Below are positions 1 through 64,000 of a stretch of 64,000 nucleotides of DNA, one piece after another. The notes beneath the pieces are model-generated. The model did no database searches and was not told where the DNA came from. It was given only the letters and a program-made list of their open reading frames with translations. Within the stretch, counting starts at the first letter, position 1. Each line of letters opens with the position of its first letter. A program made the translations under genes and the position numbers. Where the stretch lies: the NCBI GenBank assembly GCA_016874775.1, contig VGTJ01000005.1, positions 5,232 through 69,231 on the forward strand, in the 5' to 3' direction. The DNA comes from Deltaproteobacteria bacterium. Lineage in GTDB: Bacteria; Desulfobacterota; Binatia; Bin18.

Positions 1-3000
1 TTCAAGCCCTGCAACGCTTGTGGCAGGGGAAGAGCCAGGCACTTGGTCTGATTCAATTGCCGGAAGGAGTGGTTGAAGAGGCGGCGCACTATCATATTCA
101 CCCGGTGTTACTTGACGCCTGCCTGCAAACCCTGCTGGTCACCTTCCCCGACAGCAGCAAGAACGAGACGTGGCTACCTATCGGATTGGAACGTTTCCAA
201 CTGTATCGCTCGCCCGGTACTCAGCTCTGGTGTCACGCGCGACTGCAGGTGGTCGAAGAAGCTGGTCAACCGCTCTTTCGGGCTGATCTGTGTCTGCTTG
301 ACGCGACTGGGGAGACAATTGCGGTGCTCGAGGGCCTCAGGGCGAAGAAGGCTGATCCAACGCTCCTCCTGGGCGACCAACCGGATCTTGAGAACTGGTT
401 GTACGGCGTTGAGTGGCGTCCGCAAGGACTGTGTCATCCGCGGGAAAACGCGCCCCGGTTGCCTGCTCCCTCTGAGCTGCAAGAGGAACTGCGGCGCGAG
501 ATGGCGGCATTGGCCAACCAATTCCAGCTCGACGACTACGGCAAAGCATTGGCTGAGCTCGACAAACTGTGTGTGCTTTACGTTGTAGCAGCGCTGGGCG
601 ACATGGGCCACGTGTTTCGTCTTCGTGAGCAGTTCTCGACCGCAGAGCTAGCGGCACGCCTTGGGGTCGTACCGACACATCAACAACTTTTTAACCGCCT
701 GTTAGCCATGTTAGTGGAGGAGGGGATCCTCCGTGCACACCAGACTGGTTGGGAAGTCCTTCGCGTGCCCGAAAGGCCTGCGCCGAAGCCCGTGTGGCAA
801 TCGTTACGTTCACGCTATCCACAGGTCGAGATAGAACTTGACCTTGTCCAGCGTTGCGCCGTTGCCCTGGCCGATGTCCTGCAGGGGCGCTGTGATCCGC
901 TGTCGCAATTGTTATTCCCTGGAGGGGACGGGTCGGCAGTGGCTGCATTATATCGGCAGACCCCTGCGGCTGAGGCCGTGCATGCCGTCCTGCGTCAAGG
1001 CCTGTTAACCGCGCTCAACCGGCTGCCTCAGCGAAGCGGTTTGCGGATTGTCGAAATCGGTGCGGGGACTGGGGGGACAACTGCAGCGTTGCTCCCGCAT
1101 CTGCCAGCGGCGCGGACTGAGTACGTCTTCACTGATATTTCCACCGCTTTTGCGACGCAAGCAGAAGCAACATTCGCAGACTATCCCTTCGTGCAGTACG
1201 CGACATTGGATATTGAAAAGGACCCGCACGCTCAAGGGTTTGCTCCCCAGGGTTACGACATCGTGGTCGCCGCCAACGTTCTCCATGCCACCGAGGATGT
1301 CGCGCAGACAGTGCAGCATATCCAGCGCTTACTCGCGCCTGGCGGCATGGTGCTCTTGCTCGAAGGAACAGCACCGCAGCGCTGGATCGACGTGGTGTTC
1401 GGCATGACGAGTGGCTGGTGGCGCTTTCGTGATACAGATCTGCGCCCCGCTCATCCTCTACTATCTGCGCCCCAGTGGTGCGAGGTCTTACGCACTCATG
1501 GTTTTCAACAAACTGTTAGCCTTGACTGTACGCCCATTCACCAGTCTGTGCTTGTGGCTCAGGCAGATAAGATACCCGACGAGCAACAGGAATCTGAGCA
1601 TTGGTTGATTTTCGCTGATGCGGGCGAGATAGGTCACGAACTGAGAGAGCAGGTACGTGCGCGCGGATCGAGGTGTACGCTTGTCCGTCCAGGAAGCCAC
1701 TACGAACCAACCACCGACGACGCCTTCACGATTGACCCCTATGAGCCTGCGCACTATCAGCAATTGTTCGCTGGTCTCGGCACTGCCACCTTACATCACT
1801 GTGTGTATCTCTGGGGTCTTGATACGACGCGGACCAGCGACACCACCGCTTCGCTGGTCGCTGCCGCGCGGATGGGCTGGGAGGGCACGCTACTTGTGGT
1901 GCAAGCCCTGGCGCACGCTCGTCTCGCTCCGCGACTCTCTATCGTTACTCGTGGAGCCATCTCGGTAGCAGGCGAAGCGCTGCCAGGAATAGCCCTGTCA
2001 CCTGTCTGGGGCATGGGCAAAAGTATCGCCTTGGAACACCCGGAGTTACATTGTCTACGCATCGATCTCGCTGCAGAGCCACAAGCGGATGAAGTCTCTG
2101 CACTCATGGCAGAGCTGTCGCAAGGTGTCTCACAACAGACAGAGGACCAAATCGCGTTGCGTGGTGAGTATCGCTATGTGGCTCGCCTCACGCGCTGCGA
2201 TGTTCCTACTGACAGGACCAATGCGGAGCTGCTCAAGCTGCCTCAGACCGAGTCGTATGGGTTAGGAATACCAGAGTGGGGCAAGATAGAAGCGGTTGAG
2301 TGGCGACCGACGCCGCAGCGTGCGCCAAAATCGGGAGAAGTAGAAATTATGGTGCGGGCTGCGGGGTTCAACTTCAAGGATGTGCTGATCGCGCTGGGCA
2401 TGGTGCCAGCATCTGGATCGATCCTGGGCGGCGAATGCGCTGGCGAAGTCATTCGCGTCGGGCCAGGCGTGACCAATGTGAAGGTCGGCGAAGCCGTGAT
2501 GGCGATGGCCCCAGGGAGTTTCGCCCGCTATGTGACAGTCCCGGCCACAGCGGTTGCACGGATCCCGATAGGGCTGAGTTTTGCTGCGGCGGCGACGCTG
2601 CCGATCGCGTTCTTAACCACGCTGTATGCCCTAGAAGAGATCGGACAGGTCCGCGCCGGAGAGCGCGTGTTGATCCATGCCGCATCAGGAGGCGTCGGAC
2701 AGGCAGCGATCCAGGTTGCACAGCGAGCTGGCGCGGAGGTGTGGGCAACCGCGAGTGAGACGAAGTGGGAGGCGCTGCGACGGTTAGGAGTCCGAGAGGT
2801 GCTGAACTCGCGGACGCCAGCCTTTGGCGCGGAGATTAAACGACGAACACACGGAGTGGGTGTCGATATCGTCCTCAACTCGTTACGCGGAGAGTTGACG
2901 ACGGAGAGTTTAAAACTCGTACGGGCAGGAGGGCGGTTTGTTGAGCTGGGGATACGAGATATTCGCTCGGCAGCAGAAGTCACAAGACTGGCACCAGGGG

Positions 3001-4430
3001 CACAATATACGACGCTCGATTTACTAGAGGAGTATACGAAACGCCCGCCGGTGATTGAACGGTTGATGAGCGAGATCGTGAGGCGAGTGGAGGCAGGAGA
3101 GCTTCATCCCTTACCGTACCGCGAGTATGGCGTGGAAGGGGTACGCGAGGCGTTACAGGTGTTGCTGCAAGCGACCCACACTGGCAAGCTCGTCCTCTCT
3201 TTCCCGCCACCCACTCGCCCGCAGTTTCGTAACGACGGGACCTATCTCATCACAGGCGGTTTAGGCGGGCTGGGCTTGTTGACGGCTGGCTGGATGGCCG
3301 AACACGGCGCAGGTCACCTGGTCTTGGCTAGTCGCCGCAGCCTCACGCCTGAAATTGAAGAACAGATTGCGACACTGAAACAGACTGGCACTGAGGTCAC
3401 TGTCTTCCAGACGGATGTGGCGAGTGGTAAGCAGGTTGGCCAACTCTTGACTACTATCGAACATTCACTGCCACCACTACGCGGTATTATTCATGCGGCG
3501 GGGATTCTCGACGACGGTATTCTCCTTGAACAAGATAGAGAACGGTTTAGAAAAGTGCTGGTGCCTAAGGTTGATGGGGCTTGGCATCTGCACCAGCAAA
3601 CGCACACCCTGCCTTTGGACTTCTTCCTGCTGTTCTCGTCAGCCACGTCATTGCTCGGAGCGGTTGGACAGTCGAACCACGTGAGTGCCAATGCGTTTCT
3701 TGACGCGCTCGCGTATCACCGCCGAGCCCAAGGCTTACCGGCTCTCAGCATCAATTGGGGCGCGTGGTCGGAAATTGGTTACGCTGCACAGGTGCAAGCA
3801 GAAGATTTTCTCAAAGCCCAGGGGGTGGGAAGTATCGCACCACGTTGGGGAGTGGCGGCGTTGGAGCGCATCTTCCATGCGAAACAAGCGCAGATCGGCG
3901 TTATTCAGATCGACTGGCCAACCTATCTGCAGCGGACAACGCCATCGTCCTATTTGTCTGATTTCCTGCCAGCGAAGTCCGTCCAACCAGAGCAGCGCGC
4001 GGAGTTCCGTCAGCTTCTTGAGACAACGCCAGCCGCGGAACAACGTGTGCTATTGGCTAACTACGTCACCTCCCAACTTGCAACCGTGTTACGATTCTCC
4101 GCTTCCACGCGTATCGATCCGAAACAGGGCTTTTCCGATATGGGGATGGATTCGCTGACTGCGGTCGAATTGCGCAACAGCCTGCAGACCGATTTAGGTT
4201 GTACGCTGCCATCGACCCTGATCTTCGACTTTCCTAACGTGGCAGCTGTCGTCGACTATGTCGCGACAGAAGTGCTGAAAATACATTCAATTGTCGGGTC
4301 TCCAACAGTGACAGAGAACGTTGGAATAACCGAAGACCTCCAGATACTGGAACGCCTCTCAGAAGCTGAGGCTGAGACCACTCTCCTCAGGGAACTAGAA
4401 GAGCTCGAGGAAAGGGGGTTGTCGTCATGA
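1..4430 (+). CDS. Type I PKS module, 5'-partial (runs off window start): DH(C-terminal half)-cMT-ER-KR-ACP with C-terminal docking tail
   Basis: The reading frame is open from nt 3; the ORF track's start at 18 is a TTG inside an open frame. The DH C-terminal half carries HPVLLDACLQ. The cMT carries the SAM motif VEIGAGTGGTT. The ER carries LIHAASGGVGQAAIQVAQ. The KR carries the Rossmann motif YLITGGLGGLGL and HAAG. The ACP carries GMDSLTAVEL. The tail ends LLRELEELEERGLSS, and the stop overlaps the next start (ATGA at 4427-4430). Confidence 0.93.
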   Translation, partial: QALQRLWQGKSQALGLIQLPEGVVEEAAHYHIHPVLLDACLQTLLVTFPDSSKNETWLPIGLERFQLYRSPGTQLWCHARLQVVEEAGQPLFRADLCLLDATGETIAVLEGLRAKKADPTLLLGDQPDLENWLYGVEWRPQGLCHPRENAPRLPAPSELQEELRREMAALANQFQLDDYGKALAELDKLCVLYVVAALGDMGHVFRLREQFSTAELAARLGVVPTHQQLFNRLLAMLVEEGILRAHQTGWEVLRVPERPAPKPVWQSLRSRYPQVEIELDLVQRCAVALADVLQGRCDPLSQLLFPGGDGSAVAALYRQTPAAEAVHAVLRQGLLTALNRLPQRSGLRIVEIGAGTGGTTAALLPHLPAARTEYVFTDISTAFATQAEATFADYPFVQYATLDIEKDPHAQGFAPQGYDIVVAANVLHATEDVAQTVQHIQRLLAPGGMVLLLEGTAPQRWIDVVFGMTSGWWRFRDTDLRPAHPLLSAPQWCEVLRTHGFQQTVSLDCTPIHQSVLVAQADKIPDEQQESEHWLIFADAGEIGHELREQVRARGSRCTLVRPGSHYEPTTDDAFTIDPYEPAHYQQLFAGLGTATLHHCVYLWGLDTTRTSDTTASLVAAARMGWEGTLLVVQALAHARLAPRLSIVTRGAISVAGEALPGIALSPVWGMGKSIALEHPELHCLRIDLAAEPQADEVSALMAELSQGVSQQTEDQIALRGEYRYVARLTRCDVPTDRTNAELLKLPQTESYGLGIPEWGKIEAVEWRPTPQRAPKSGEVEIMVRAAGFNFKDVLIALGMVPASGSILGGECAGEVIRVGPGVTNVKVGEAVMAMAPGSFARYVTVPATAVARIPIGLSFAAAATLPIAFLTTLYALEEIGQVRAGERVLIHAASGGVGQAAIQVAQRAGAEVWATASETKWEALRRLGVREVLNSRTPAFGAEIKRRTHGVGVDIVLNSLRGELTTESLKLVRAGGRFVELGIRDIRSAAEVTRLAPGAQYTTLDLLEEYTKRPPVIERLMSEIVRRVEAGELHPLPYREYGVEGVREALQVLLQATHTGKLVLSFPPPTRPQFRNDGTYLITGGLGGLGLLTAGWMAEHGAGHLVLASRRSLTPEIEEQIATLKQTGTEVTVFQTDVASGKQVGQLLTTIEHSLPPLRGIIHAAGILDDGILLEQDRERFRKVLVPKVDGAWHLHQQTHTLPLDFFLLFSSATSLLGAVGQSNHVSANAFLDALAYHRRAQGLPALSINWGAWSEIGYAAQVQAEDFLKAQGVGSIAPRWGVAALERIFHAKQAQIGVIQIDWPTYLQRTTPSSYLSDFLPAKSVQPEQRAEFRQLLETTPAAEQRVLLANYVTSQLATVLRFSASTRIDPKQGFSDMGMDSLTAVELRNSLQTDLGCTLPSTLIFDFPNVAAVVDYVATEVLKIHSIVGSPTVTENVGITEDLQILERLSEAEAETTLLRELEELEERGLSS
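405..1520 (+). other. C-methyltransferase (cMT) domain inside the reducing PKS module
   Basis: A domain of roughly 370 aa sits between the DH remnant and the ER. It carries the class I SAM glycine-rich motif IVEIGAGTGGTTAAL and an acidic motif II region (YDIVVAANVLHAT). Its position between DH and ER matches embedded PKS cMT domains. Confidence 0.7.
3240..3760 (+). other. KR domain in which the catalytic Tyr is replaced by His
   Basis: The Rossmann motif TYLITGGLGGLGLLTA, HAAGIL, the catalytic Lys (VPKVDGAWHL) and the Ser (LFSSATSL) are all present. The motif that normally reads N-Y-A-A-A-N-A-F-L-D reads N-H-V-S-A-N-A-F-L-D, with a CAC codon at 3678-3680. The two other intact KRs in the window have Tyr at this position. 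Confidence 0.8.
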
Positions 4431-7400
4431 GTGCTACCCCTTCCCAGCAACCTACACTGTCTCCCACCAAGAGAGCCTTACAGGCCCTACGGGCTGTACG
4501 CTCCAAGCTTGAAGCGCTTGAACAGGCACAAAAGGAGCCGATCGCTATCATTGGTATGGGGTGTCGTTTGCCCGGTGACATCGAGACCCCGGAAGCCTTC
4601 TGGGAACTGTTGCGCGAGGGGAGGGATGCCATTGCGGAGATTCCGGCGTCGCGCTGGGATGTGGGCCACTACTATGATCCCGATGTTGCCGTGCCGGGAA
4701 AGATGATCACACGCCAGGGCGGGTTCCTGCAGCGCATCGACGAATTCGACCCACATTTCTTTGGTATTGCGCCGCGTGAGGCGATGAGCATGGATCCTCA
4801 GCAACATCTGCTCTTGGAGGTGTGTTGGGAAGCGCTGGAAAATGCGGGCGTGGTTCCGGCTGACCTCAAAGGCAGTCGCACCGGTGTGTTTGTCGGAATT
4901 TGCAATCAGGATTATAGCACTCTCCTTATGTCCCGCGACGAAACCGCGATCGACGCCTATATGACCACCGGCCTGGCGCATAGTGTCGCCGCCGGACGGC
5001 TGGCCTACAGCCTGGGTTTGCAGGGGCCTTGTTTAGCAGTTGATACCGCCTGCTCTTCTTCCCTAGTGTCAGTGCACCTTGCCAGCCAAAGCCTGCGTAA
5101 CCGCGAGTGTGATTTTGCCATCGCCGGTGGAGTCAATCTGATTCTCTGTCCGGAGACCAGCATTAACTTCTCCAAGAATCGCATGCTCGCACCCGATGGC
5201 CGCTGTAAGACCTTTGCCGCTACAGCTAATGGCTTCGGCCGCGGTGAAGGGTGTGGTCTTATCGTGCTTAAGCGATTGTCGGACGTTGTGCCAAGTCAGG
5301 ATCAGGTGCTCGCTCTCATCCGTGGCTCAGCCATCAATCAAGATGGCGCGTCCAGCGGCCTGACGGTGCCCAATGGCCCGGCCCAGCAATCAGTCATTCG
5401 TGAGGCGCTGAAAAACGCGGGATTGAGTCCAGACCAGATCAACTACCTCGAAGCGCACGGGACAGGAACCAGTTTGGGCGACCCGATTGAAATGGGTGCG
5501 CTCAGTGCGGTCTTTGGGCCAACTCGTCAACCACAAGAGCCGTTGATTGTGGGGTCAGTGAAAACCAATCTTGGTCACCTGGAAGGAGCGGCGGGCATCA
5601 GTGGACTGATGAAGCTCGTCCTGGCGCTCAGGCATGAGGAGATTCCTGCTCACCTACATTTTACTGCGCCGAGTCCGCATATCCCGTGGGACACGATGCC
5701 GATCGTTGTCCCCAGTCAGGCACGGGCATGGCCCGCAGGCAGCAAGCCTCGCTTAGCCGGAGTGAGTTCGTTTGGCTTCAGTGGTACCAATGCGCATGTC
5801 ATCCTTGAAGAAGCACCGTGGGTGAGCAAGCGGGAGGCAAAGGCTGAACCTGTCGAGATCTACACCGAACCGGTGCTCGAACGCCCACTCCATATCCTCA
5901 CCCTCACTGCCCGTTCTCCTCAAGCGCTGCAAGCCCAGGCTGCGAGTTACGCTGCTCACCTTACCGACGCGACTCACGTGTCCCTCGCCGATGTTTGTTA
6001 TACCGCCAACACCACCCGCTCGGTGTTTGAGCAACGACTGGTTGTTGTTGCTAGTAACACTGAGGAGATGCGGAGCAAGCTCGAGCGCTTCAACGCGGGC
6101 CATCGCGAACAGTTAGTTGCCCAGGGTGATGTCCGTACCACTGAACAGCCGCGTGTGGCGTGGTTATTTAGTGGGCAAGGGTCACAATATCCTGGGATGG
6201 GCTCCAGTCTGTACCAGACACAACCAGTGTTCCGTCGGGCGTTTGATGAATGCGCCCGTATTCTTGACCCCTTGCTTGGCCGCTCTCTCTCCGCGCTGGT
6301 GTTTGACCAAACCTCGCCTGATCTACATCGGACAGCGTTTACCCAGCCGGCACTCTTTGCCCTCGAGTATGCCTTAGCCCAGATGTGGTTGTCATGGGGT
6401 GTTCGACCGGATGCGGTCATTGGCCATAGCGTGGGCGAGTACGTCGCCGCCTGTATCGCTGGGGTTTTCACTCTGGAAGATGCGCTCCGGTTGATTGCGA
6501 CACGTGGCCGTCTTATGCAGGCGCTCCCGCGCAATGGCGCGATGGTTGCCGTTTTTACTGGCCAGGAACAGGTCATTCGGGCCATCGTTACTCTCGGTAG
6601 TAATGTGTCGATCGCCGCTGTCAACAGCAGTACGGAAACGGTCGTTTCGGGCGAACGCACGGCTGTGCAAAGGCTGGTGGAGCACATAACAGCCATGGGG
6701 ATCCGCACGCAAGAACTGAGCGTGTCACATGCGTTCCACTCGGACCTAATGGAGCCGATGCTGGCTGAGTACGAACAGGTTGTTCGTGGCGTTTCGCTGT
6801 CTTTACCGCGCATCCGTCTGGTGTCTAATCTGACCGGAGAAGTTGTCTCGCAGCAGGTGACTGAGCCCACCTACTGGTGTCGTCATCTACGCAAGCCGGT
6901 GCTTTTCGCAGCAGGGCTCGCCACGCTCCGTCAACACGGCCTACAAGCGTTGGTGGAAATGGGGCCGCATCCCGTCCTGGTTGGCATGGCGCGATCACAG
7001 GTTCTCAACCAAGCATCTTCTCCAGCGTTGTATCTGCCGAGCCTGCGCAAGGGGCAGCAGGATTGGATGGTACTGGCACACAGCCTGACTGATCTCTATC
7101 TCGCTGGTGTACCAATTGACTGGACAGGTTTCGACGCGCCCTACCAACGACATCGCACAGCCCTGCCAACCTATCCTTTTCAGCGCAAACGCTATTGGTT
7201 TACTGAGAACGCAACCTCTCGACGGCAATCCTCTGTACCGACCTCTCCGCTGGTTTCTCTCCTGCAAGAAGGCGACGCCGAAGCTTTAGCCGGGCACCTG
7301 CAAGCTAGCGGAGAGCTAACGGCGGAAGAGGTGAAGTGTCTGCCAAAGCTGACCGAGCTGTTGATCCGCCAGCATCACCAGCAACCGCAGGAAGAACAGA

Positions 7401-9472
7401 ACGGCTTGTGCTACCGACTGACGTGGCAGAAAAAGGCGCGTAGCACCGAGCGGCGTGAGGACAAACGGTCTGCCGACCGTCGCACTGGTACTTGGTTGAT
7501 TGTAGCGCATCCTGACGCACTCGAACTCGCCGAGCCCCTGCGCGACGTCGGACGGTGTTCTTTCCGCGTTGTGCTGGGTAGTGCGGATCAACATGTGACT
7601 GCTAAGAAGCGGTTGATAAATTCCCTTGAGGCTGTTCCAACAGGCGAAACCGTGCTTCGACAAGCTCAGTACGAACGGGAAAAGCACAGCGACGGTGTAT
7701 CTTCTTCCGTTCACCCTGAGCTTGTCGAAGGGTGGATGGCGAATTTGTCAACAGCTTCTAACACCTGGATCATCGATGCGACCAACGAGGACGAGTATCA
7801 CCATGTGCTGGAAGAAGTCATGGCTAAGACCACGATTGAAGGCGTCGCTTACCTCTGGCCTGCAGAGGTCAGACCCGAGCAGCAATTGCACGGACTGGGG
7901 GAAGAGGGTCTCATGCCAGTGGTGCGACTCGCGCGCGCGCTTGCTCGGTTCACGTCTCCACCCCGCCTGTGGCTGATCACGCAAGCGGCCACCACGGCTG
8001 GGGATGCGGCGCCACTATCTCCCTTCCCGTCACTTCTGTGGGGCATGGGCCGGTCGCTCTTCCTGGAGCACCCCGCACTGAAGGGTGGGATCGTGGATGT
8101 GAGTTCACAGCCGAGTACAAGCGAAATTCAGGCGCTGTGCCAGGAGCTACTAGATTCACAAGGAGAGGACAACATTACGCTGCGCGCGGGCAAGCGCTAT
8201 GTCGCGCGTCTGCAAACATCACTTGATGTGACAACGACGATGCCCCGACTCAAGTCCGATGGTGCTTACCTTGTCACTGGTGGTTTGGGAGCACTAGGAC
8301 TACAGGTCGCCCGTTTCCTCGCGCAACACGGAGCTGGTCAGGTGGTGCTCATGGGTCGTCGCGAGGCAACCGCGCAGGCCAAAGAGCTCGTGGACTCCCT
8401 GCAAGACCTGAACACGCACGTGGTAGTGGCGCAAGCTGATTGTACCGCTGAAGCAGAGGTACATAGGGTTCTCGACGAGATCGCGGCCAGCGGGTTCACG
8501 CTCAAAGGGGTGATCCATGCCGCTGGGGTCCTAATCCCGCGATCCGTCAGTGAACTCGACCACGAGTGTTTGCGTACTGTGGTCGCTCCCAAAGTACAGG
8601 GAGCCTGGACGTTGCACCGCGTAACCCAACAACTCACGCTCGACTTTTTTGTCTGTTTCTCGTCGGTCTCCGCTGTTTTGGGTACGGCCTTTCAAGCGCA
8701 CTATACGGCAGCGAACGCCTTTTTAGACGGCTTGGCTGAGTACCGTCGCGGCCTTGGCTTGCCCGCCCTCAGTATCAACTGGGGGCTCTGGGAAGGACGG
8801 GGAATGGTAGATGACGAGTCGGCGCGACGTGTTACGGACACTGGTATTAAAGCACTGTCGTCGCATACGGCACTCGCTCTGTTTGGTCGCCTCCTCAGAA
8901 CAGATCAGTCTCGAGCCGTCGTGTTGAATGCAGATTGGCAGCGCCTCAAGAGCTTGTATGAAGTTCGCGGCAAGCAGCCTGTGCTCGAGTTTATGGGCAG
9001 CACGATGCAGGAGGAAACGACCGCAAAGGCCTCGGCTATCCTCGACCAATTACAAGCGATGACGGTCCGCGACCGGTTCGATTTCTTGGTTTCCTATCTG
9101 CAAGAGCAAGTCAGCGCGGTGCTGTATTTTGACGCGAATACTACGCCAGATTCTAAACACGGCTTCATTGATATCGGTCTCGATTCACTGACCGCCGTAG
9201 AACTGAAGGGTCGGGTTGAGACCGAATTAGGTTGTCCTCTGTCTCCGTCAGTGATGTTCGATTATCCCAATATCGAGGCGCTCACCAGCCATTTATTGGA
9301 GCAGCTTTCAGCGATGACGCCAGAGCGCGAGAGAAAAGCCCAGAACGATAAGGGAGCGGCGGTTGTTGTGGTAGAGGAAGCCGCCGTCCAGGCTGATGTC
9401 CGGCAACTTTCTGATACCGAAATCGCGGCGTTCATCGACAACGAGCTCGCGACGCTGACCGACGAAGGATAG
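4427..9472 (+). CDS. Type I PKS module: KS-AT-KR-ACP (malonyl-type AT, no DH, giving a beta-hydroxy unit)
   Basis: N-terminal docking coil, then EPIAIIGMGCRLPG. The KS carries DTACSSSLV and HGTGTSLGD. The AT carries GHSVGEY and VSHAFHSDLM (malonyl). The KR carries AYLVTGGLGALGL, HAAGVL and QAHYTAANAFLD with the catalytic Tyr intact. The ACP carries GLDSLTAVELK. The protein ends with a docking tail. Confidence 0.95.
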   Translation: MSATPSQQPTLSPTKRALQALRAVRSKLEALEQAQKEPIAIIGMGCRLPGDIETPEAFWELLREGRDAIAEIPASRWDVGHYYDPDVAVPGKMITRQGGFLQRIDEFDPHFFGIAPREAMSMDPQQHLLLEVCWEALENAGVVPADLKGSRTGVFVGICNQDYSTLLMSRDETAIDAYMTTGLAHSVAAGRLAYSLGLQGPCLAVDTACSSSLVSVHLASQSLRNRECDFAIAGGVNLILCPETSINFSKNRMLAPDGRCKTFAATANGFGRGEGCGLIVLKRLSDVVPSQDQVLALIRGSAINQDGASSGLTVPNGPAQQSVIREALKNAGLSPDQINYLEAHGTGTSLGDPIEMGALSAVFGPTRQPQEPLIVGSVKTNLGHLEGAAGISGLMKLVLALRHEEIPAHLHFTAPSPHIPWDTMPIVVPSQARAWPAGSKPRLAGVSSFGFSGTNAHVILEEAPWVSKREAKAEPVEIYTEPVLERPLHILTLTARSPQALQAQAASYAAHLTDATHVSLADVCYTANTTRSVFEQRLVVVASNTEEMRSKLERFNAGHREQLVAQGDVRTTEQPRVAWLFSGQGSQYPGMGSSLYQTQPVFRRAFDECARILDPLLGRSLSALVFDQTSPDLHRTAFTQPALFALEYALAQMWLSWGVRPDAVIGHSVGEYVAACIAGVFTLEDALRLIATRGRLMQALPRNGAMVAVFTGQEQVIRAIVTLGSNVSIAAVNSSTETVVSGERTAVQRLVEHITAMGIRTQELSVSHAFHSDLMEPMLAEYEQVVRGVSLSLPRIRLVSNLTGEVVSQQVTEPTYWCRHLRKPVLFAAGLATLRQHGLQALVEMGPHPVLVGMARSQVLNQASSPALYLPSLRKGQQDWMVLAHSLTDLYLAGVPIDWTGFDAPYQRHRTALPTYPFQRKRYWFTENATSRRQSSVPTSPLVSLLQEGDAEALAGHLQASGELTAEEVKCLPKLTELLIRQHHQQPQEEQNGLCYRLTWQKKARSTERREDKRSADRRTGTWLIVAHPDALELAEPLRDVGRCSFRVVLGSADQHVTAKKRLINSLEAVPTGETVLRQAQYEREKHSDGVSSSVHPELVEGWMANLSTASNTWIIDATNEDEYHHVLEEVMAKTTIEGVAYLWPAEVRPEQQLHGLGEEGLMPVVRLARALARFTSPPRLWLITQAATTAGDAAPLSPFPSLLWGMGRSLFLEHPALKGGIVDVSSQPSTSEIQALCQELLDSQGEDNITLRAGKRYVARLQTSLDVTTTMPRLKSDGAYLVTGGLGALGLQVARFLAQHGAGQVVLMGRREATAQAKELVDSLQDLNTHVVVAQADCTAEAEVHRVLDEIAASGFTLKGVIHAAGVLIPRSVSELDHECLRTVVAPKVQGAWTLHRVTQQLTLDFFVCFSSVSAVLGTAFQAHYTAANAFLDGLAEYRRGLGLPALSINWGLWEGRGMVDDESARRVTDTGIKALSSHTALALFGRLLRTDQSRAVVLNADWQRLKSLYEVRGKQPVLEFMGSTMQEETTAKASAILDQLQAMTVRDRFDFLVSYLQEQVSAVLYFDANTTPDSKHGFIDIGLDSLTAVELKGRVETELGCPLSPSVMFDYPNIEALTSHLLEQLSAMTPERERKAQNDKGAAVVVVEEAAVQADVRQLSDTEIAAFIDNELATLTDEG

Positions 9473-9476
9473 CAGC

Positions 9477-12400
9477 ATGGCAATGAAGGACTCTGGCGAA
9501 CTGACCCCCCTGCAGAAGGCGTTTGTTGCCATCAAGCAACTGCGTGGCAAGGTCGAACGTCTTGAACAGGCAGACACTGAGCCGATCGCGATTATCGGCA
9601 TGAGCTGTCGCGTGCCTGGGGCCAATGATCCAGAATCGTTTTGGCAGCTGATTCGCAACGGCGAGGATATGGTCACTACTGTCCCGCGTGAGCGCTGGGA
9701 TATTGAGGCCTATTATCACCCAGAACCCGGACGGCCTGGGAAGACATATACCCGGCATGGGGGATTCCTCAGTGGCGTGGACCGTTTCGATGCGGCGTTC
9801 TTTGGCATCTCCGCGCGCGAAGCTGAGGGCATGGACCCGCAACAACGCCTGCTCTTGGAAGTCGCCTGGGAAGCGCTCGAACATGCGGGATTGGTTCCCG
9901 CCCACCTCGCAGGAAGTGCCACAGGAGTCTTTGTTGGAGTCACTGCGGGCGACTACGCTATGCTGCAGGTCGAACAGGCAGATCAGAATCAGACCCATCC
10001 CTATTTCAATACCGGAACGCCCTTGAACGCTTGTGCAGGTCGGCTGTCCTATATCTTGGGTTTGCAGGGTCCCTGCATGGCGGTTGATACTGCCTGCTCT
10101 TCTTCGCTCTCCGCCATTCATCTGGCCTGTATGAGCCTACGCGCCGGGGAGTGCGATCAGGTGCTCGCCGGTGGGGTCAATCTCATCCTCACTCCCAGAG
10201 TCTTTGTCACGTTGTCAGCGGCTGGTATGATGGCGCCCGACGGGCGCTGCAAGACCTTCGACGCCACCGCCAACGGGTATGTCCGCGCTGAAGGCTGCGG
10301 TATTGTGGTGCTCAAGCGTTACAGCGATGCGCAAGCCGCAGGGGATCGTGTCCTCGCTTTGATTCGCGGTTCGGCGGTGAACCAGGATGGGGCGAGCAGC
10401 GGATTTACCGCGCCAAACGGCGTGGCCCAACAAAAATTGCTCTGCCAGGCTCTCGGCAAAGCGAAGGTCGCACCGGCAGAGATCGACTATGTGGAAGCGC
10501 ACGGGACGGGAACCGCGCTGGGTGATCTGATCGAGACCCAGGCATTGGGTACTGTCCTGGGACAAGCTGAAGCCAGACTGCACCCGCTGTTAGTGGGATC
10601 GGTCAAGTCTAATATCGGCCACCTGGAGTCGGCAGCGGGTGTCGCGGGCCTCATCAAACTGGTGCAGGCGTTGCGATATGAGGAGCTCCCGCCCACGCTT
10701 CATCTCACACAGCCAAACCCCGACGTCGCCTGGGAGACACTGCAGGTGAAGCCAGTGATTGAACTAACCCCGTGGCCTCGGGGTCAGAAACGCCGCGTGG
10801 CTGGGCTCAGTTCATTTGGTGCGACCGGCAGTAACGCACACCTGATTCTTGAAGAAGCCCCGCCGAGCCTGCCGCAGCGTCCAGAAGTCGACCGCCCCAT
10901 GCATATTTTGACGCTGTCAGCCAAGTCGCAATCGGCGTTGTTGGAGTTAGCCGGTGACTACGAACACTTGCTCGTGCAAGAGACATCGCCAGCGCTTGCC
11001 GATGTCTGTTTCACTGCCAATAGTAGTCGAACTCACTTTAAGTGGCGCGTCGCTCTGGGTGCTGCCGATAAGGAACAAGCACGCGCACAGCTTGCTGCCT
11101 TTAGTGCTGGCCGATCGGTTCCTGGACTGCTGCTTGGTGGTGAACCGCCAGCGAAACCTCTACGCCCTGCGTGGCTGTTCACCGGACAAGGTGCGCTCTA
11201 TCCCGGTATGGGACGTGAGCTATATGAAGTGCACTCTGGTTTTCGCCGCGCAATAGACGGCTGTGCGGAAATCCTCGAACCCCTGCTGGAAAAGCCGCTG
11301 CAGTCCGTTCTGTACCCAAGTGCGCATAGAGATGACAGCGCGGACCTCCTCCAGCAGGCGGTGTATGTCCAGCCTGCACTATTTGCGCTGCAATATGCTC
11401 TGGCCAGTTTGTGGCGCTCATGGGGTGTGGAACCCGAAGCGGTGGTCGGTCACAGTCTCGGTGAATACTGCGCGGCCTGTATCGCCGGGGTCTTCAGTCT
11501 TGAAGATGGCCTGAAGCTTGTGGTTGAGCGCGCCCGTCTGATGCAAACGCTGGCTGAGACCGGCAGTATGGTCGCCGTCATGACCAGCGAAGCCCGCGTG
11601 GCGCAGGCATTGGCTCCCCATCGTCAGGATGTGAGTATCGCGGCGGTGAATGGGCCGCAAAACGTGGTCGTGTCCGGTCGGACGCCGGTGGTGCAACAGC
11701 TTGTCAGTCAGTTTCGTACGGAAGGCATTGAGACCATCCCGCTACAGGTGACCCACGCGTTTCACTCGCCGGTCATGGATCCGCTGTTAGATGCGTTTGA
11801 ACGATTTGCTGAGCAGATCGATTTTCACGCGCCAACACTGCCCCTGATCTCAAACTTGACGGGCCAACCGCTAACGCCAGGAGTGGTTCCCGATGCTGAG
11901 TATTGGCGGCGGCACTGCCGTGAGCCCGTGCAGTTCATGCAGAGTCTGTCTACCCTATTGAATCGCAACCTCAGCCTCTTTATAGAAATCGGTCCTCACC
12001 CAGTGTTAAGTCATTTAGGCAAACGCCAAGAGCCGTCGGCTGTGTGGCTCCCGTCCCTGACACGCCACAAGAGCGATTGGTCGGTGTTGCTGAGCAGTGT
12101 CGCTGAAGCATACATCCGCGGGGCGAACATTGACTGGTCTGGCTTTGACGCGCCCTTCGCCCGCAATCGTGTGTCCGTGCCAACGTATGCCTTTCAACGC
12201 ACGCCCTATTGGATTGTCAGAAAAGAATCGATTATGAAAGACAGTCAAGCGAATTCCCAAACTCCCCAGTCTGCCCAAGATAATCGGCAAACTCAACGTG
12301 AAGCCATTTTGACGCATGCACTGCAGCTAATTGCCGGAATGCTCCACGTCCACCCCTCCGAGATTGATATTCATGCGTCGTTTCTGGAAATGGGGGCTGA

Positions 12401-15400
12401 CTCGCTCGTGTTAGTCGAAGGGGTACGCACGGTTGAAGATCATTTCGGCGTCAAACTTGAGATCCGCCAATTTTTTGAAGAGATTACCACGATCGCGACC
12501 CTGGTCGATTATCTGGTTGATCGCACAACCTTCGGACTCCCTCCGTCCTCACCGGCAGTGCAGCCGACACAAGTCGCACCTCAAGCTATCGCTCCCACCA
12601 TCATAGCTCCCATCAGCACAGCACCTGTCGTAGCGCATGGCGTGGCCGCGCTTCCTCAAGTCACAACGCGAACAGGTGGAACAGCCCTGGAGCAGATTGT
12701 CCTGGCGCAGATGCAGTTGATGAGCCAGCAATTGGCTGCCTTGCAGGGAACTGCACCTGCAGTTAGTGTGCCCGCGCAGATTGCCCACAGCAGCCTGGCA
12801 GAAAACGGCGACGCGCCTGAACGATCCGCTGTTGCAGTACTAGCGCCCGCGCAGCCCGCGGCTCCAACAGAACTGCGTCAGTCGCCGAAGGTTGCTGAAG
12901 ACCGTTCCTCGCCCTTGCGAGCACTGGCGAATCCGATCACCCCAGGCCCCAAAACCACGGACCCGCGCCAGAGTGCGCATCTGGCCGCGCTCATTGAACG
13001 CTACGAGAAAAAAACTCCGAAGTCCAAAGCCCTGGCGCAAGCGTGTCGTCCAGGGCTGGCCGACAGTCGCGCCAGCGTCGGCTTTCGCTTTTCCACCAAG
13101 GAGATCCTCTATCCAATCACCGGGAGTGAGTCGCTCGGTTCGCGCTTGCGTGATGTCGATGGCAACACCTATGTCGACTTGACCATGGGATTCGGCGTGC
13201 TGCTGTTTGGTAGCCGCCCCGAGTTTATGAACGGCGTCGTTGAAGCGGAAGTCCAGCGTGGGTTCCAACTCGGTCCACGGTCAGACGTGATGGCAGAGGT
13301 CACATCCCTGTTTACTGAGCTGACTGGGCACGACCGTGTCGCGTTTACCAACTCTGGCACTGAAGCCGTCATGATTGCCTTGCGACTGGCGCGCACTGCC
13401 ACTGGTCGCTCGAAGATTGCGTTGTTTGAGGGATCATACCATGGACACTCCGATGGCACCCTCGCCAAGACTGTGCGCGTGAACGGCGAACTGCGGTCCG
13501 AGCCGGTGGCACCCGGCATACCGCCCAACGTCGCCAAAGACGTTCTCGTGCTTGAATACGGTACGGCGGAAACGCTGGAGACTCTGCGCGCCCACGCCCA
13601 TGAACTCGCGGCGATTCTGGTGGAACCAGTGCAGAGTCGACGTCTGGACTTTCAACCGGTTGACTTCTTACGCCAACTGCGCGCGCTGACCGAGGAGTTG
13701 GGTACCGCGCTGATCTTTGACGAAATGATTTGCGGGTTCCGTGCCCACCAGGGCGGTGCTCAGGGTCTCTTTGGCATCCAGGCGGATATCGCGACCTACG
13801 GGAAGATCCTCGGCGGTGGCATGCCGATCGGCGCAGTGGCGGGAAAAGGTCGCTTCTTGGACGGCATCGATGGCGGCGTGTGGCAGTATGGTGATAACTC
13901 TTATCCACGCGCCACTCGCACCTATTTTGGTGGGACGTTCTGCCAGCATCCCTTTTCGATGGCAGCCTGCCGAGCCACACTGCGTTACCTCAAAGCGCAG
14001 GGCCCCGGCCTTCAAGAACGGCTCAATCAACGCACAGCCGAACTCGCTGAGACGCTCAATGCCTATTTCCTTACAGAGGAATTGCCCCTGCGCGTCTCTT
14101 ACTTTTCCTCTGCCTTTCGCTTTGAGTTTTCCGGTAACCTCGAATTGCTCTATTACCACCTGTTAGAGAAGGGAGTGTACATCTGGGAGTGGCGCAATTG
14201 TTTCCTGTCAACCGCTCACACCGATGAGGACATCGCACAGTTCATTCAGGCAGTGAAAGACAGCCTTGAGGAGATGCGGCACGGTGGGTTCCTACCTGAG
14301 CGACGTTCCAGGCATCAGCCTTCGGGGCCCGATGGCAATGGGCACCACGCGACGAACGGTGTAGGGGTGCGTCGGGGGCAGACAACACCGACCCCGCTCC
14401 ATAGCAAAACTGTACGTTCCGAAGACCCGCGCGGTTTCTGGTATCGACCCAATTCCAAACTGAGCCATCGTGAGACGGTTGTTGATCACCAACCGTTAGT
14501 GCGGCAAACTGGTCAACAGGGTCAACGAGCACTCACTTTTGGTATATCGTACTTCGGCCCGTACTCTGCATCCTTTAGCGACGATAAGTATGACCTGCTG
14601 CTGGAGAGCGCACGGTATGCGGACAGCGAGGGATTTGCTGCTCTCTGGGTGCCTGAGCGGCATTTCCACGAGTTTGGCGGCTTCTCGCCTAATCCTTCGG
14701 TGCTGGCCGCTGCGCTCGCTAGAGAAACCACACGTATCCACTTACGCGCGGGCAGCGTGGTGTTGCCGCTGCATCACCCGATTCGCGTGGCTGAGGAATG
14801 GGCACTAGTCGATAATCTGTCTGGCGGTCGCGCAGGCATCGCCTTCGCCTCTGGCTGGCATGCTAATGATTTTGTCTTTGCTCCCGAGGCGTATGGACAA
14901 CATCGCGAGTTGACGTTCCAGGGTGTAGAAACCGTGCGCCAGTTGTGGCGCGGAGAAACGATCACGCAGCGCGGCGGACAAGAAAGTAAAGTCGACGTCA
15001 GTATTTATCCCCGGCCCAAACAAGCCAGCCTCCCCGCTTGGCTCACCATCGTCAACAACCCCGATACCTATCGTAAAGCCGGTGAGCTGGGGGTTGGGGT
15101 GCTGACCAACCTGATGGGCCAATCGTTGGATGACCTGGCTGCCAATATCGCCGTGTACCGACGAGCCTTAGCCGAACATGGCCACGACCCAGCGGCAGGA
15201 CACGTGACTGTCCTGATCCATACCTATTTGGCGGCTGACGCTAGCGAGGCTATCGAGACCGCACGCCAGCCCATGTGTGACTATCTCTTGTCCAGTATCG
15301 GGCTCTTCCAGAAGATGGCACAGAGCGAGGGCAAGGCGCTCAATATCGACCGTTTGACCCAAGCGGACAAAACTTTCCTGGTACAAAGCGCGTATGAGAA

Positions 15401-21800: not shown

Positions 21801-23568
21801 TACGGTGAACCCGACCGAGCCCGCTGATTTTGTGACTCTGTGTAAGGACCTGCACGATCGCCAAGTGCTGCCGCAACGGATTCTCTACTTGTGGGGCACC
21901 ACGAGCGACAACCGCACTGTGAGAGACCCGCACGATATCGGTGACTACTGTGGCGGTCTCTTGTCCATAGTCCAAGCGTTTACGCAGCAATCATCGGCGC
22001 AGCCGGTTGAGCTCCTCGTCGTCGCTAATCAGATGCGTGATGTCAGCGGGGAAACATCCATTGATCCAGCCAAGGCCGCCCTGCTTGGTCCGCTCAGCAC
22101 GATTCCTTGGGAGCATCCTGGTTTCACTTGTCGTGCGATCGACATTCCTTCGCCGGGCTTGCGAACCTGGCAGTTACCGAGTCTGGTCACTCGCCTGATG
22201 TCTGAACTCGGAGGACCTGCAGCGGAGCGGATTGTTGCTTTGCGGGCCGGTCAGCGTTGGATCGCCGATCTTGACCCGGTCCGCTTGGAAATCCCAAGCG
22301 CGGAAAAAAACCTACGAGGCTCCGGTCTGCTCCGCGACGGTGGGGTGTATGTGATTACTGGCGGTCTCTATACCATCGGGTTGCAGTTGGCCCGCCAGAT
22401 AGCGACTATGGTGCACGCCAAGCTGGTCCTGACCGCGTGCGGTCCAACGACCGGCAATGGATCGCAGCCGTCAGCCGCCGCGCTTGCTCCTATCGCGCCG
22501 CAGCTTCAGGAACTCGAATCGTTGGGCTGTGAGGTCCTACCGCTCCACCTTGAGCGCTTCGATACCCTTCACCTCGAAGACGCATTGCGTCACGCCGAAC
22601 GTCGCTTTGGCCGTATCTCTGGGGTGATTCATGCCGAGGACATGAGTAGTGCGCGCCTCTTCAGTTTCATTCAAGATCTCGATCCCACTGCCCGCGACCA
22701 CTACTGGAACGAGCAGCGCCAGACACTCGTCGCTCTCACAGAGTGTTTGCAAGAACGAGAGGTAAGTTTTTGCATGGTGATGTCTTCCCTCGCTTCTGAA
22801 GTCGGCGGGGTAGGGCAGGTCGCGCATACCACTGCCAGTGTGTATCTCGATGCGTTCACCCAGTGGCACCATCAACAGACGGCGTGCCCGTTGATGGTAG
22901 TGAACTGGGATATGTGGAACACCGAAGAAGACCGGGTACCGGCGCACTCGGGCCTCGCCACGCTCGCCATGACCCCCGCAGAAGGGGCTCACGCGTTCCA
23001 GCGCATGCTGTATGCCGGCACCTTCGCACGTATCCTTGTCTCCACCACCGATCCGCGCTTGCGCCACGAGGTGATCCGCACCATGCACGCAAAGCACGCG
23101 ACGCTCGGCCCGACGGAAGAGAGCAACGGACTGACTGGTGCCACGAGAGACCATGCACGTCCTGACCTACTGACTCCCTATGCGCAGCCGCGGAGCGACG
23201 ATGAGACCGTCATGGCTGAGCTGTGGCAAGAGTGTTTGGGCATAGACCGGATTGGCATTCACGACAATTTCTTTGATTTGGGCGGTCATTCCCTCCTAGC
23301 TACAAAACTTGTGTCACGCTTACAGCAGACCTTCCAGGTACGTATGGAATTGGACATTTTTTTCTCCAGTCCGACGATTGCCGAGTTGACCGAGGCGCTA
23401 CTGCATCAACAGTTAGAGCAGAATGGCGGAGATCAGATGACCCACTTACTCGACCGACTTGAAGAGCTAACCGAGGAAGAGGCCGAGGCTCTGCTGAACA
23501 GTAACAGCCTGCCCACGGACCTGCTTGCTGCTCTTGCCGACGAAATCAGTGACGACCGCAATCAGTAG
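18883..23568 (+). CDS. Type I PKS module accepting an aminoacyl chain from the upstream NRPS module: KS-AT-KR0(degenerate)-ACP
   Basis: The KS is a hybrid type (AIAIIGMAARMPGA, GTACSSSLVSLHFACQNL, HGTATPLGD). The AT carries GHSLGEY and HAFHSAMM. The KR-like region carries the Rossmann motif VYVITGGLYTIGLQLA but has lost its catalytic motifs. The ACP carries FFDLGGHSLLATKL. The protein ends with a docking tail. Confidence 0.93.
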   Translation: MSHEEPRVEQDAIAIIGMAARMPGAANLDAFWRNLRDGVESISHFSEEELLESGLDLATIRQPNFIPAKGIMADVEQFDASFFGIAPREAEIMDPQHRLLMECAWEVMEHAGYDSESYAGRIAVYTSTGMNTYLPVNILSNPGLAESVGGFQLSIYNDKDFVPTRIAYSMNLKGPGVDIGTACSSSLVSLHFACQNLLTYQCDMAIVGAVSVHFPVKVGHLCEEGAAYSPDGHCRPFDATRSGLIDGNGMGAVVLKRLSDALADGDYIHAVIKGTAINNDGSLKVGYAAPSIDGQARVIIEAQALAGCPPDTISYIEAHGTATPLGDPIEVKALTQAFRVGTQRKGFCGLGSVKSNIGHVDKAAGLAGLIKTTLALKHDVIPPSLHFTAPNPKLNLPDSPFHVVNKLQPWPKNADTPRRAGISSFGVGGTNAHAVIEEAPPVAPSSPSRPVQVLMVSAKTEAAVEAATENLATFLEQAPDMNLSDVCYTLQQGRRPFVYRRAVVCTSGTEGVKALRASQFARVADATNRGVVFLFPGQGSQYPGMGHDLYRHEPVFRDQVDQCAHYLEPELQLDIRTLLFPAAEEYEEAATQLAQTALTQPALFTIEYALAQLWMSWGVQPRAMIGHSLGEYVAACIAGVFSLQDALTLITARGRMMQKLPSGAMLAVPLAEKELQPLLGAKIDLAAVNGPQLCVVSGPEREIAALDERLTKQGLSCRLLHTSHAFHSAMMEPMLQPFTSLVRSITLKPPQSPYLSNLTGQWITEAQATQPEYWAQHLRHTVRFAAGISCLLDSEPSVLLEVGPGRTLCDLASQVQSKHRAQCLPSLPHAREKRGAQQFVLQALAELWMTGANMDWAGFYQHERRQRVPLPTYPFQRRRYWIDPAKQVTMGTAESTATGKKPDVADWFYLPSWKATLTPVAQLEAMPADTCWLVFADEHGLAAALAAELVRVGHSVVSVRKGAGFARKDAQTYTVNPTEPADFVTLCKDLHDRQVLPQRILYLWGTTSDNRTVRDPHDIGDYCGGLLSIVQAFTQQSSAQPVELLVVANQMRDVSGETSIDPAKAALLGPLSTIPWEHPGFTCRAIDIPSPGLRTWQLPSLVTRLMSELGGPAAERIVALRAGQRWIADLDPVRLEIPSAEKNLRGSGLLRDGGVYVITGGLYTIGLQLARQIATMVHAKLVLTACGPTTGNGSQPSAAALAPIAPQLQELESLGCEVLPLHLERFDTLHLEDALRHAERRFGRISGVIHAEDMSSARLFSFIQDLDPTARDHYWNEQRQTLVALTECLQEREVSFCMVMSSLASEVGGVGQVAHTTASVYLDAFTQWHHQQTACPLMVVNWDMWNTEEDRVPAHSGLATLAMTPAEGAHAFQRMLYAGTFARILVSTTDPRLRHEVIRTMHAKHATLGPTEESNGLTGATRDHARPDLLTPYAQPRSDDETVMAELWQECLGIDRIGIHDNFFDLGGHSLLATKLVSRLQQTFQVRMELDIFFSSPTIAELTEALLHQQLEQNGGDQMTHLLDRLEELTEEEAEALLNSNSLPTDLLAALADEISDDRNQ
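21560..22960 (+). other. Degenerate KR (KR0): structural fold retained, catalytic residues lost
   Basis: Compared with the intact homologous KR in the 36029-44842 protein (IHAAGS ... TAKVHGLYVL ... TAYSAANSFIDAF), this copy reads IHAEDMS ... NEQRQTLVAL ... VAHTTASVYLDAF. HAAG has become HAED, the Lys is Gln/Arg, the Tyr is His and the Asn is Ser. Confidence 0.7.
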
Positions 23569-35600: not shown

Positions 35601-36032
35601 CGGGCTAAGTTGCCAGCGTACATGGTTCCCTCGGAGTTGGTGTTTGTCGATACGCTTCCACTCACGCCGAACGGCAAGCTCGACCGTCGGGCGCTGCCTA
35701 CGCCTCATCGTCAGCAACAGATCGCTTATGTGGCCCCGCGTACGCCGACCGAGGAACACTTGACCCGCATTATGGCAGCGGTGCTGTCCGTGGAACGGGT
35801 CGGGATCACCGATGATTTCTTCGCGCTGGGTGGTCATTCACTCCTGGCCACGAAATTCATCGCGCGTATCAAACACGAGTTACGCATCACCGTGCCCTTG
35901 CCCTTGTTGTTTAGCGAACCGACGATCGACTGGCTGGCAAGTTATATTGACGTCACCCTGTGGGCCGCGCAGCAACACCGTATGGCGCCTGAGATCGCAT
36001 TACACGAAGATGAAGAGGAAATCCGCCTGTGA
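23607..36032 (+). CDS. Trimodular NRPS: C-A(embedded N-methyltransferase)-PCP / C-A-PCP-E / C(DCL)-A-PCP
   Basis: N-terminal docking helix. C1 carries [9 protein letters not shown]. A1 carries [19 protein letters not shown] and YKTGD, with an MT insertion between A8 and A9/A10. PCP1 carries [10 protein letters not shown]. C2 carries [9 protein letters not shown]. A2 carries [19 protein letters not shown] and YQSGD. PCP2 carries [10 protein letters not shown], the type that precedes an E domain. The E domain carries [10 protein letters not shown]. C3 begins [15 protein letters not shown] and carries [11 protein letters not shown], a DCL type. A3 carries [19 protein letters not shown] and YRTGD. 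PCP3 carries [10 protein letters not shown]. The stop overlaps the next start (GTGA). Confidence 0.95.
   Translation: [4141 protein letters not shown]
25831..25861 (+). repeat. 31-nt exact DNA repeat (copy 1) inside A domain 1
   Basis: ctgtcatgcaagccacgccagcgacgtggcg, encoding [10 protein letters not shown], is read identically at 34927-34957 in A domain 3. Confidence 0.8.
26460..27790 (+). other. N-methyltransferase domain inserted into A domain 1, between the A8 and A9/A10 motifs
   Basis: About 430 aa follow the A8 motif [20 protein letters not shown] and precede A10 [13 protein letters not shown]. The insert carries the SAM motif [20 protein letters not shown] and [15 protein letters not shown], matching the NELSxYRYxAV motif of NRPS N-MT domains. 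Confidence 0.8.
31340..32720 (+). other. Epimerisation (E) domain after module 2 PCP
   Basis: [23 protein letters not shown] (E-type HHxxxDG) and [10 protein letters not shown]. It is preceded by the GGDSI-type PCP and followed by a DCL-type C domain ([11 protein letters not shown]). Confidence 0.8.
34927..34957 (+). repeat. 31-nt exact DNA repeat (copy 2) inside A domain 3
   Basis: Identical to 25831-25861. A diverged version of the same block is in the A domain of the next gene (about 38341-38375). Confidence 0.8.
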
Positions 36033-58785: not shown

Positions 58786-58806
58786 TGGTTGGCTCTCCGT
58801 TGTGAA

Positions 58807-59850: not shown

Positions 59851-59894
59851 GTAAACCTATCTCTTTTCCTTTGATTCGTTGCTCAGTTTGACCG

Positions 59895-61523: not shown

Positions 61524-61735
61524 AGCGGATACTTATCGGCGGCGCAGAGCATGTTCTACAGCTTCCACCACAGAGGTTGATACGCCCGATGGAAAGCGTC
61601 GGCGAACTTCCCCTCTCGACTCTTCCATCAGTCGTCGTAACATCCCGTCACTTACGCATCGAACGAGGCAAGAGATTTCATAGCACATCCCCTCTATGTT
61701 GCCACTGCAATTGGAAGAACGGGCATACCAGCAAC

Positions 61736-63765: not shown

Positions 63766-64000
63766 TGTCTCTTGACCTCTATAGATTTCGTCATGCTGCC
63801 CCCGCCGTCCGCAGGCGTACCCACCCAGGCTAAAACCACAGGGTGCGTATTCCCAAGAATGGCCATGACAGTCTTGGGCATTTAGGAACCTGAAGACTAT
63901 CCTATTAACTTTGTGAGGTCGCTTTCTCGGATTTTGTTTCTGACCCACCCCTACACACTTTTCTTCCTTGGCGCATGTGAGCGGAAGGATCCTCCACGGT

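Follow-up and report, generated by a model that had tools for sequence, protein, structure and literature searches.

The closest described counterpart of the locus considered here is the pathway to the puwainaphycins and minutissamides. One of its polyketide synthase (PKS) modules, PuwB, has the domain order ketosynthase (KS)-acyltransferase (AT)-dehydratase (DH)-C-methyltransferase (cMT)-enoylreductase (ER)-ketoreductase (KR)-acyl carrier protein (ACP), and the product carries a residue without oxygen at the carbon that is reduced in this module (PMC4219810). The same order is found in gene A of a 64,000-nucleotide stretch from a Deltaproteobacteria bacterium (contig VGTJ01000005.1, positions 5,232 to 69,231), the whole of which is called the window here. 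The KR of gene A contains a histidine where a catalytic tyrosine is usual, a replacement that an earlier, sequence-only reading of the window had treated as a possible lesion. Based on sequence comparisons, this His is probably (we estimate a probability of roughly 0.82) native to the catalytic site of a distinct, widespread and functional subtype of type I PKS KRs, which is nearly always found beside an active-looking cMT dependent on S-adenosylmethionine (SAM). The module of gene A would then most likely be a working one. The His variant as such is already known from the literature: in a passage of a review, the KR active-site tyrosine is described as "sometimes replaced by histidine", with credit to Keatinge-Clay 2012 (PMC7327777).

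PuwB and gene A are 44-45% identical over the fragment of gene A that lies in the window and about 60% identical in the KR. The KR of all three PuwB proteins (P0008, P0012 and P0022) reads GQANHAAAN, which is the N-H-x-x-A-N pattern of the window KR. The likeness extends downstream: what comes after PuwB in its pathway is a PKS module that has aminotransferase and monooxygenase domains and is fused to a nonribosomal peptide synthetase (NRPS) module, and the window protein encoded at 9477-18878 has the same make-up. Unlike the puw pathway, the window has an extra KS-AT-KR-ACP module (4427-9472) between this protein and gene A. The loading systems also differ, as the puw pathway employs a fatty acyl-AMP ligase (FAAL) plus an ACP, whereas the window encodes an adenylation (A)-KR0-ACP-KS-AT-DH-KR-ACP protein, KR0 denoting a degenerate KR. 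Another point of comparison is the CurJ module of the curacin synthase, whose cMT is a close homolog of the window cMT and is embedded between DH and KR. CurJ is not known to have an ER.

The His is encoded by CAC at 3678-3680, and is residue 1226 of the window fragment and residue 2336 of the full 2585-residue protein. The KR reads GQSNHVSANAFLD, and the translation of 3-4430 on the forward strand contains LLGAVGQSNHVSANAFLDALAYH and GAVGQSNHVSANAFLDA. Pairwise HMMER alignments to mycocerosic acid synthase (MAS; 9d2z and 5bp4), Lsd14 (7s6b) and AmphB (3mjv) place the His in the column of the catalytic Tyr of the Y-x-x-x-N motif, as the sequence-only reading had reported. That reading had also described the Lys, Ser, Asn, NADPH motif and HAAG as intact, and each of them was located (Table 1): the KR keeps the Gly-rich NADPH motif together with the Arg for the 2'-phosphate, the catalytic Lys, Ser and Asn align with those of solved KRs, and the segment ILDDG holds the LDD that marks B-type KRs, with a D-hydroxy product suited to the DH.

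Canonical B-type KRs, for instance those of MAS (5bp4 and 9d2z), Lsd14 (7s6b) and EryKR1 (2fr0), belong to the same fold family and match the window KR with 140-163 bits. They share its NADPH motif, Arg, Lys, Ser, Asn and LDD, but have Tyr in place of His; they also differ at position +34 from this residue, which is not Met in the window KR. C-type KRs such as PikKR3 (3qp9) and the KR0 of the window protein starting at 18883 resemble the window KR in lacking the canonical Tyr. However, they have lost NADPH-binding residues and the Asn, all of which are retained in gene A; neither the degenerate NADPH site nor the loss of Asn or Lys that characterizes inactive C-type KRs is seen in the domain at 3237-3773. 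The subtype to which the window KR is assigned, termed His-type, is defined operationally here by N-H-x-x-A-N with Gln at -3, an intact cMT in the module and a residue other than Met at +34. The window KR has all of these features, its motif being GQSNHVSAN.

The sequence-only reading had raised the possibility of a sequencing error. In this case the true codon would be TAC, which is one base away from CAC. Two independent assemblies were traced via the neighboring protein encoded at 4427-9472: SRR7053297 (L002) is identical to the window across 19,472 b, while ERR14789947 (L001) departs from it at 13 positions of this span. The His codon is CAC in each of them. Because the codon recurs in two independent assemblies, one of them with 13 other differences, and because His is also the residue of nearly all homologous KRs, an error in sequencing or assembly can be set aside with practical certainty.

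Homologs were collected by a search with the whole window fragment, and the 120 best proteins, which have the same architecture and are 40-80% identical, were retained. The comparison of orthologous clusters for Tyr or His at this site, which the sequence-only reading had proposed, gives 116 His and 5 Tyr among 121 KR matches. The His-bearing proteins include the three PuwB proteins and PKSs of Moorena, Crocosphaera, Trichodesmium, Chloroflexi, Entotheonellaceae and others, as well as all seven of the closest relatives of gene A (54-65% protein identity). For ten cyanobacterial homologs the cluster members were looked up, and these bear generic names only. Loci with His-type KRs are found in Cyanobacteria, Acidobacteria, Gemmatimonadota, Chloroflexi, Actinomycetota, Latescibacterota, Desulfobacterales and Gammaproteobacteria. 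The catalytic subdomain of the KR is 65-80% identical to those of the seven closest relatives, which equals or exceeds the values for cMT and ACP and is clearly higher than those for DH (46-69%) and ER (53-58%).

Residue conservation was scored in a profile alignment of 148 His-type KRs. Arg36, Asp63, the second Asp of LDD and the Gln at -3 are present in 148/148, Gly 1, 2 and 4 of the NADPH motif in 146-148, the Asn at -1 in 145 and Gly 3 in 113, with the catalytic Lys, Ser and Asn similarly retained (Table 1). Among other genomes, CAC serves as the His codon 18 times and CAT 13 times. Thus the amino acid is held while its codon drifts, a pattern which, together with the residue conservation, is characteristic of a functioning NADPH-dependent enzyme. 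Judged by these patterns, the KR domain is under purifying selection.

These data bear on a second explanation, also taken from the sequence-only reading, in which the KR was inactivated recently, so that DH and ER would stand idle and an alpha-methyl-beta-keto unit would be released. Tyr is, after all, the canonical acid. Rule-based predictors of KR activity commonly require it and would call such KRs inactive. Nevertheless, recent inactivation is very improbable, considering that His is ancestral to a clade of at least eight phyla and is found in all seven closest relatives, that the cofactor-binding and catalytic residues of the 148 His-type KRs are near-invariant, that every other catalytic and NADPH-binding residue of the window KR is intact, and that the KR is among the best-conserved domains of a module whose DH, cMT and ER motifs are likewise intact. 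For the same reasons, the useless DH and ER and the alpha-methyl-beta-keto unit of the sequence-only reading find no support. Its remaining option, a KR that tolerates His, points in the right direction and yet falls short, as this clade has His as its standard residue and not as a tolerated lesion; and its statement that active KRs read N-Y-A-A-A-N holds for the Tyr-type majority but not for His-type KRs.

A stronger candidate for true inactivation, as far as its sequence indicates, is a KR in Pelatocladus maniniholoensis (L079). In a DH-cMT module of this organism, a KR of the His clade (ORF position 1556) has Ala at the catalytic site (GQANAAAANA), and the cMT is intact.

The module context of His-type KRs was examined with domain hidden Markov models (HMMs) for KS, AT, DH, cMT, ER, KR and ACP, built from gene A homologs. 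The first sample consisted of 80 genome loci retrieved with a KR profile (seed pattern His or Tyr), to which the window, L001 and L002 were added, giving 83 loci with 157 KRs. Modules with a cMT contain 26 His and 5 Tyr, and those without a cMT 7 His and 114 Tyr; four or five of these seven His lie in truncated contexts and one belongs to the KR0 of the window. Both types coexist in 15 loci, where 14 of the 17 His-type KRs share their module with a cMT and 17 of the 19 Tyr-type KRs do not. The window itself follows this pattern. The second sample comprised 150 representatives of giant multimodular PKSs, obtained by an index-free HMMER search, with 456 KRs in complete context: 439 Tyr and 5 His without a cMT, as against 3 His and no Tyr with one. 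Pooling both samples gives 29 His and 5 Tyr in cMT modules, and 12 His and 553 Tyr in the others. The catalytic His and Glu of the methyltransferase and its SAM motif are intact in 142/142 His-KR modules that have a cMT.

A link between His and the ER, as implied when the module is framed as fully reducing, was rejected. DH-ER modules without a cMT have no His among 98 KRs in the two samples (0 His and 29 Tyr in the first one). Based on these module counts, His tracks the cMT and not the ER. An obligatory role for His in cMT modules was likewise rejected, given that the cMT is intact in seven modules whose KR has Tyr. Two further DH-cMT-ER-KR modules of the Tyr type, from Ralstonia sp. (L075) and Cupriavidus sp. 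(L082), carry a degenerate pseudo-methyltransferase which has lost the SAM motif, has Arg in place of the catalytic His, and scores 34-43 against the cMT HMM rather than about 270. Conversely, at least four and perhaps five or more genuine His-type KRs reside in modules without a cMT, two of them adjacent to a cMT module of the same protein; four examples are given here (P0273 residue 5157, P0401 residue 2552, P0333 residue 1780 and P0324 residue 4930), the module types being KS-AT-DH-KR, KS-DH-KR and KS-AT-KR. The preceding module is DH-cMT-ER-KR in P0401 and ends in ER-KR in P0333, a protein that is cut off upstream. These two contexts suggest that a cassette may have been duplicated and its cMT lost.

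His-type and Tyr-type KRs are told apart best by position +34, in the segment W-G-x-W-x-x-x-G-[M]. We take this segment to form a lid over the KR active site, as in KR structures generally. Met is found at +34 in 76 of 124 Tyr-type KRs, with Leu as the alternative, and in none of the 148 His-type KRs, which have Ala (96), Glu (20), Ser (17) or Tyr (10). Tyr is the residue in the window, in L001 and L002, and in close relatives such as P0001 and P0006.

Two explanations of the association with the cMT were considered. According to one, His marks a lineage and is nearly neutral: it became fixed a single time, when the DH-cMT-psiKR-(ER)-KR cassette (psiKR being the structural, or pseudo, KR subdomain) arose from its ancestor, and was then spread by module duplication and transfer with no special link to methylation. 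The cMT modules with Tyr and the cMT-less modules with His are both in line with this explanation, as are exchanges between close relatives. For instance, the Tyr-bearing P0034 and P0040, which have the same architecture, are 76% and 74% identical to the His-type P0031 and P0067, whereas their KRs are just 60% identical to any other Tyr-type KR; because they lie nearer to His-type than to Tyr-type KRs, His and Tyr have evidently been exchanged. A neutral marker is harder to reconcile with the strength of the association in the pooled counts, with the replacement of the lid Met by Ala, Glu, Ser or Tyr in step with His, and with the pseudo-methyltransferases in both of the Burkholderiales Tyr-type modules. 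On balance we give it an even chance. The other explanation is a tentative one, which we consider rather unlikely: His-type KRs may be a specialized subfamily that co-evolved with the cMT, in which the change of Tyr to His and the loss of the lid Met slow or re-tune the KR, so that reduction takes place only after alpha-methylation or the 2-methyl-3-ketoacyl-ACP is preferred. If this were true, the order of methylation before reduction would be enforced in cMT modules, the pair of His and lid residue would predict and control methylation fidelity, and calls of inactive KRs would be systematically wrong.

The catalytic competence of His-type KRs is suggested by purifying selection together with the puwainaphycin product of the His-type homolog PuwB. 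Full reduction of the product was also the outcome which, according to the sequence-only reading, would demonstrate tolerance of His. A proposed reaction sequence for the module of gene A starts with KS and AT, which would extend the chain with malonate. The cMT would then methylate the alpha carbon of the beta-ketoacyl-ACP at the expense of SAM. Next, the B-type KR would reduce the 2-methyl-3-ketoacyl-ACP with NADPH, the His presumably acting as proton donor in place of Tyr, beside Ser, Lys and Asn. Dehydration by the DH and reduction by the ER would finally yield an alpha-methyl, fully saturated unit.

It is conceivable that the whole His clade is instead dead as a reductase and kept for a structural or other role, reduction taking place in trans or not at all. 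A search of the accessible literature, which found no biochemical assay of any His-type KR, leaves room for such a clade. However, if the domain were purely structural, the Gly motif, Arg, Asp, Lys, Ser and Asn would not be conserved at 145-148/148, and the true KR0 domains of the window illustrate what decay looks like. Moreover, puwainaphycin is saturated at the PuwB-derived carbon, and the conserved DH and ER downstream of His-type KRs need the product of a KR. A dead clade is therefore quite unlikely.

Several points weigh against a native, functional subtype as the explanation of the window His. Each of the five best matches of the KR in the PDB has Tyr and none has His. NADPH-dependent beta-keto reduction by the window KR is supported solely by analogy with the PuwB product, and PuwB was assigned to that product by bioinformatic means and not by an in vitro KR assay. 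With regard to the association with methylation, the Fisher test of the first sample gives p = 4e-18, a value that overstates a functional link between His and the cMT since related sequences are not independent. Domain HMMs built from the clade itself may also miss divergent cMTs, and the neighbor-joining tree carries no support values. Searches of a limited library turned up a single review sentence on the His variant, and no open paper on its association with the cMT or on any assay of such a KR; this absence is weak evidence of novelty.

If the native, functional subtype is the correct explanation, the predicted product of the module of gene A changes from an alpha-methyl-beta-keto to an alpha-methyl saturated unit. 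The prediction for the whole cluster, a new PKS/NRPS cluster of the alpha-hydroxy-beta-amino-acid type, is altered accordingly. Lack of the canonical Tyr does not by itself make a KR dead: beside cMTs, His-type KRs are the norm in many phyla, and any structure prediction in which they count as inactive will therefore be wrong. The association of His with the cMT and the lid residue could also serve as handles for engineering methylated polyketides.

Table 1. Features of gene A, its KR and the surrounding cluster (positions in the window)
Feature	Position	Strand	Basis or remark
Gene A, KS-AT-DH-cMT-ER-KR(His)-ACP	ends 4430, starts upstream of window	+	
DH, C-terminal part, catalytic Asp motif HPVLLDACLQ; N-terminal part upstream of window	3..407	+	Pfam PS-DH
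cMT, SAM motif EIGAGTGG intact (Glu 1053-1055), catalytic His 1284-1286 and Glu 1362-1364	474..1526	+	Pfam Methyltransf_12; CurJ alignment
Structural (pseudo) KR subdomain	1602..2072	+	Pfam PF21394 Beta-ketacyl_N, residues 534-690
ER, NADPH motif HAASGGVG	2331..3197	+	Pfam ADH_N, ADH_zinc_N, ADH_zinc_N_2
Catalytic KR subdomain, B-type (LDD), Gln at -3, His at Tyr site	3237..3773	+	Pfam KR 223.5 bits, full model length; PDB alignments
NADPH-binding motif TGGLGGLG	3252..3275	+	translation
Arg of KR	3333-3335	+	translation
HAAG and LDD; LDD marks B-type KRs with D-hydroxy product feeding DH	3507..3515 (LDD)	+	translation
Catalytic Lys (AAG)	3567..3569	+	kept in 148/148 His-type KRs
Catalytic Ser (TCG)	3636..3638	+	kept in 147/148 His-type KRs
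His codon CAC at canonical catalytic Tyr site	3678..3680	+	translation, PDB alignments, two assemblies
Catalytic Asn (AAT) of x-x-x-N motif	3690..3692	+	kept in 145/148 His-type KRs
Lid position +34 from His, Tyr here	3780..3782	+	site co-varying most strongly with His versus Tyr
ACP, phosphopantetheine Ser 4152-4154	4062..4262	+	Pfam PP-binding; motif GMDSL
KS-AT-KR-ACP	4427-9472		
KS-AT-ACP-aminotransferase-monooxygenase-C-A-PCP (C, condensation; PCP, peptidyl carrier protein)	9477-18878	+	PuwE-like; monooxygenase luciferase-like
KS-AT-KR0-ACP	18883-23568	+	
Degenerate KR0 of 18883 protein	22342..22920	+	Pfam KR 82 bits (223 for gene A KR)
Three-module NRPS	23607-36032		
C-A-PCP-KS-AT-KR-ACP-TE (TE, thioesterase)	36029-44842		
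A-KR0-ACP-KS-AT-DH-KR-ACP	46490-57514	-	

The part of gene A that lies in the window (3-4430, forward strand) encodes the C-terminal 1475 residues of the PKS, and its start lies beyond the left edge. Pfam assigns DH (C-terminal part)-cMT-psiKR-ER-KR-ACP to this fragment. The full gene, taken from L001, encodes 2585 aa with the order KS-AT-DH-cMT-ER-KR-ACP, and contains the catalytic Cys and His of the KS, the HAFH motif of the AT (malonyl-type, which fits a malonyl extender), the His and Asp of the DH, the NADPH motif of the ER and the Ser of the ACP. The catalytic His of the DH is found in DHRVFQRAILP, where His and Pro are kept in 110-111 of 114 homologs. The window cMT matches the structure of the CurJ cMT (5THY) with 323 bits; NVLHAT and the Glu of LLLEGT align, so that both catalytic residues are matched. 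The genes that immediately precede gene A lie outside the window and are those of an IS-type transposase (rve / DDE_Tnp_IS240) and a DUF6072 protein (520-1722 in L001 and 80-1283 in L002). They mark the edge of the cluster on this side.

The window contains two decayed KR-like domains. The KR0 of the 18883 protein has His at the Tyr site (22825-22827), Thr in place of Lys (22687-22689) and Ser in place of Asn (22837-22839). In the alignment to His-type KRs it also lacks the Arg and has a degenerate Gly-rich motif. By these losses it is a dead KR, as the sequence-only reading had stated. That reading had further taken its His as a recurrence of the change in gene A. The His is indeed there, yet a common origin was rejected: with an identity of about 30% to the His clade, the domain falls outside it, and the shared residue therefore looks coincidental. 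The other domain is found in the loading module, at residues ~990-1200 of the protein encoded at 46490-57514, and reads NNGLEGIG at the Gly-rich motif, PEV for PKV and CAVAASS for x-Y-x-x-x-N. This A-(KR-like)-ACP arrangement resembles the initiation module of tychonamide, the KR of which has been reported as predicted to be inactive (PMC13252402).

Taken as a whole, the window encodes a hybrid PKS/NRPS, together with a type II thioesterase and an MbtH-like protein. The logic of an aminotransferase-monooxygenase module fits the alpha-hydroxy-beta-amino acid units of puwainaphycins, nostophycin and related peptides (PMC4219810; PMC13252402). The PuwE-like module (9477-18878) makes it probable that the cluster forms an alpha-hydroxy-beta-amino acyl residue of the kind present in puwainaphycin, nostophycin and tychonamide-type peptides. 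Its product is probably new, because the best homolog of gene A is just 65% identical. Successive megasynthase genes overlap by four bases (stop/start) at 4427-4430 and at 36029-36032, which suggests that their translation may be coupled. The flank at 57625-63948, on the reverse strand, encodes an SPFH/Band 7 protein, whose relatives above 40% identity are all metagenome proteins, the named ones being at 40% or less. Also encoded there are an amidohydrolase, an ABC transporter ATPase, a DUF697 protein and, without a Pfam match, a protein of 469 aa.

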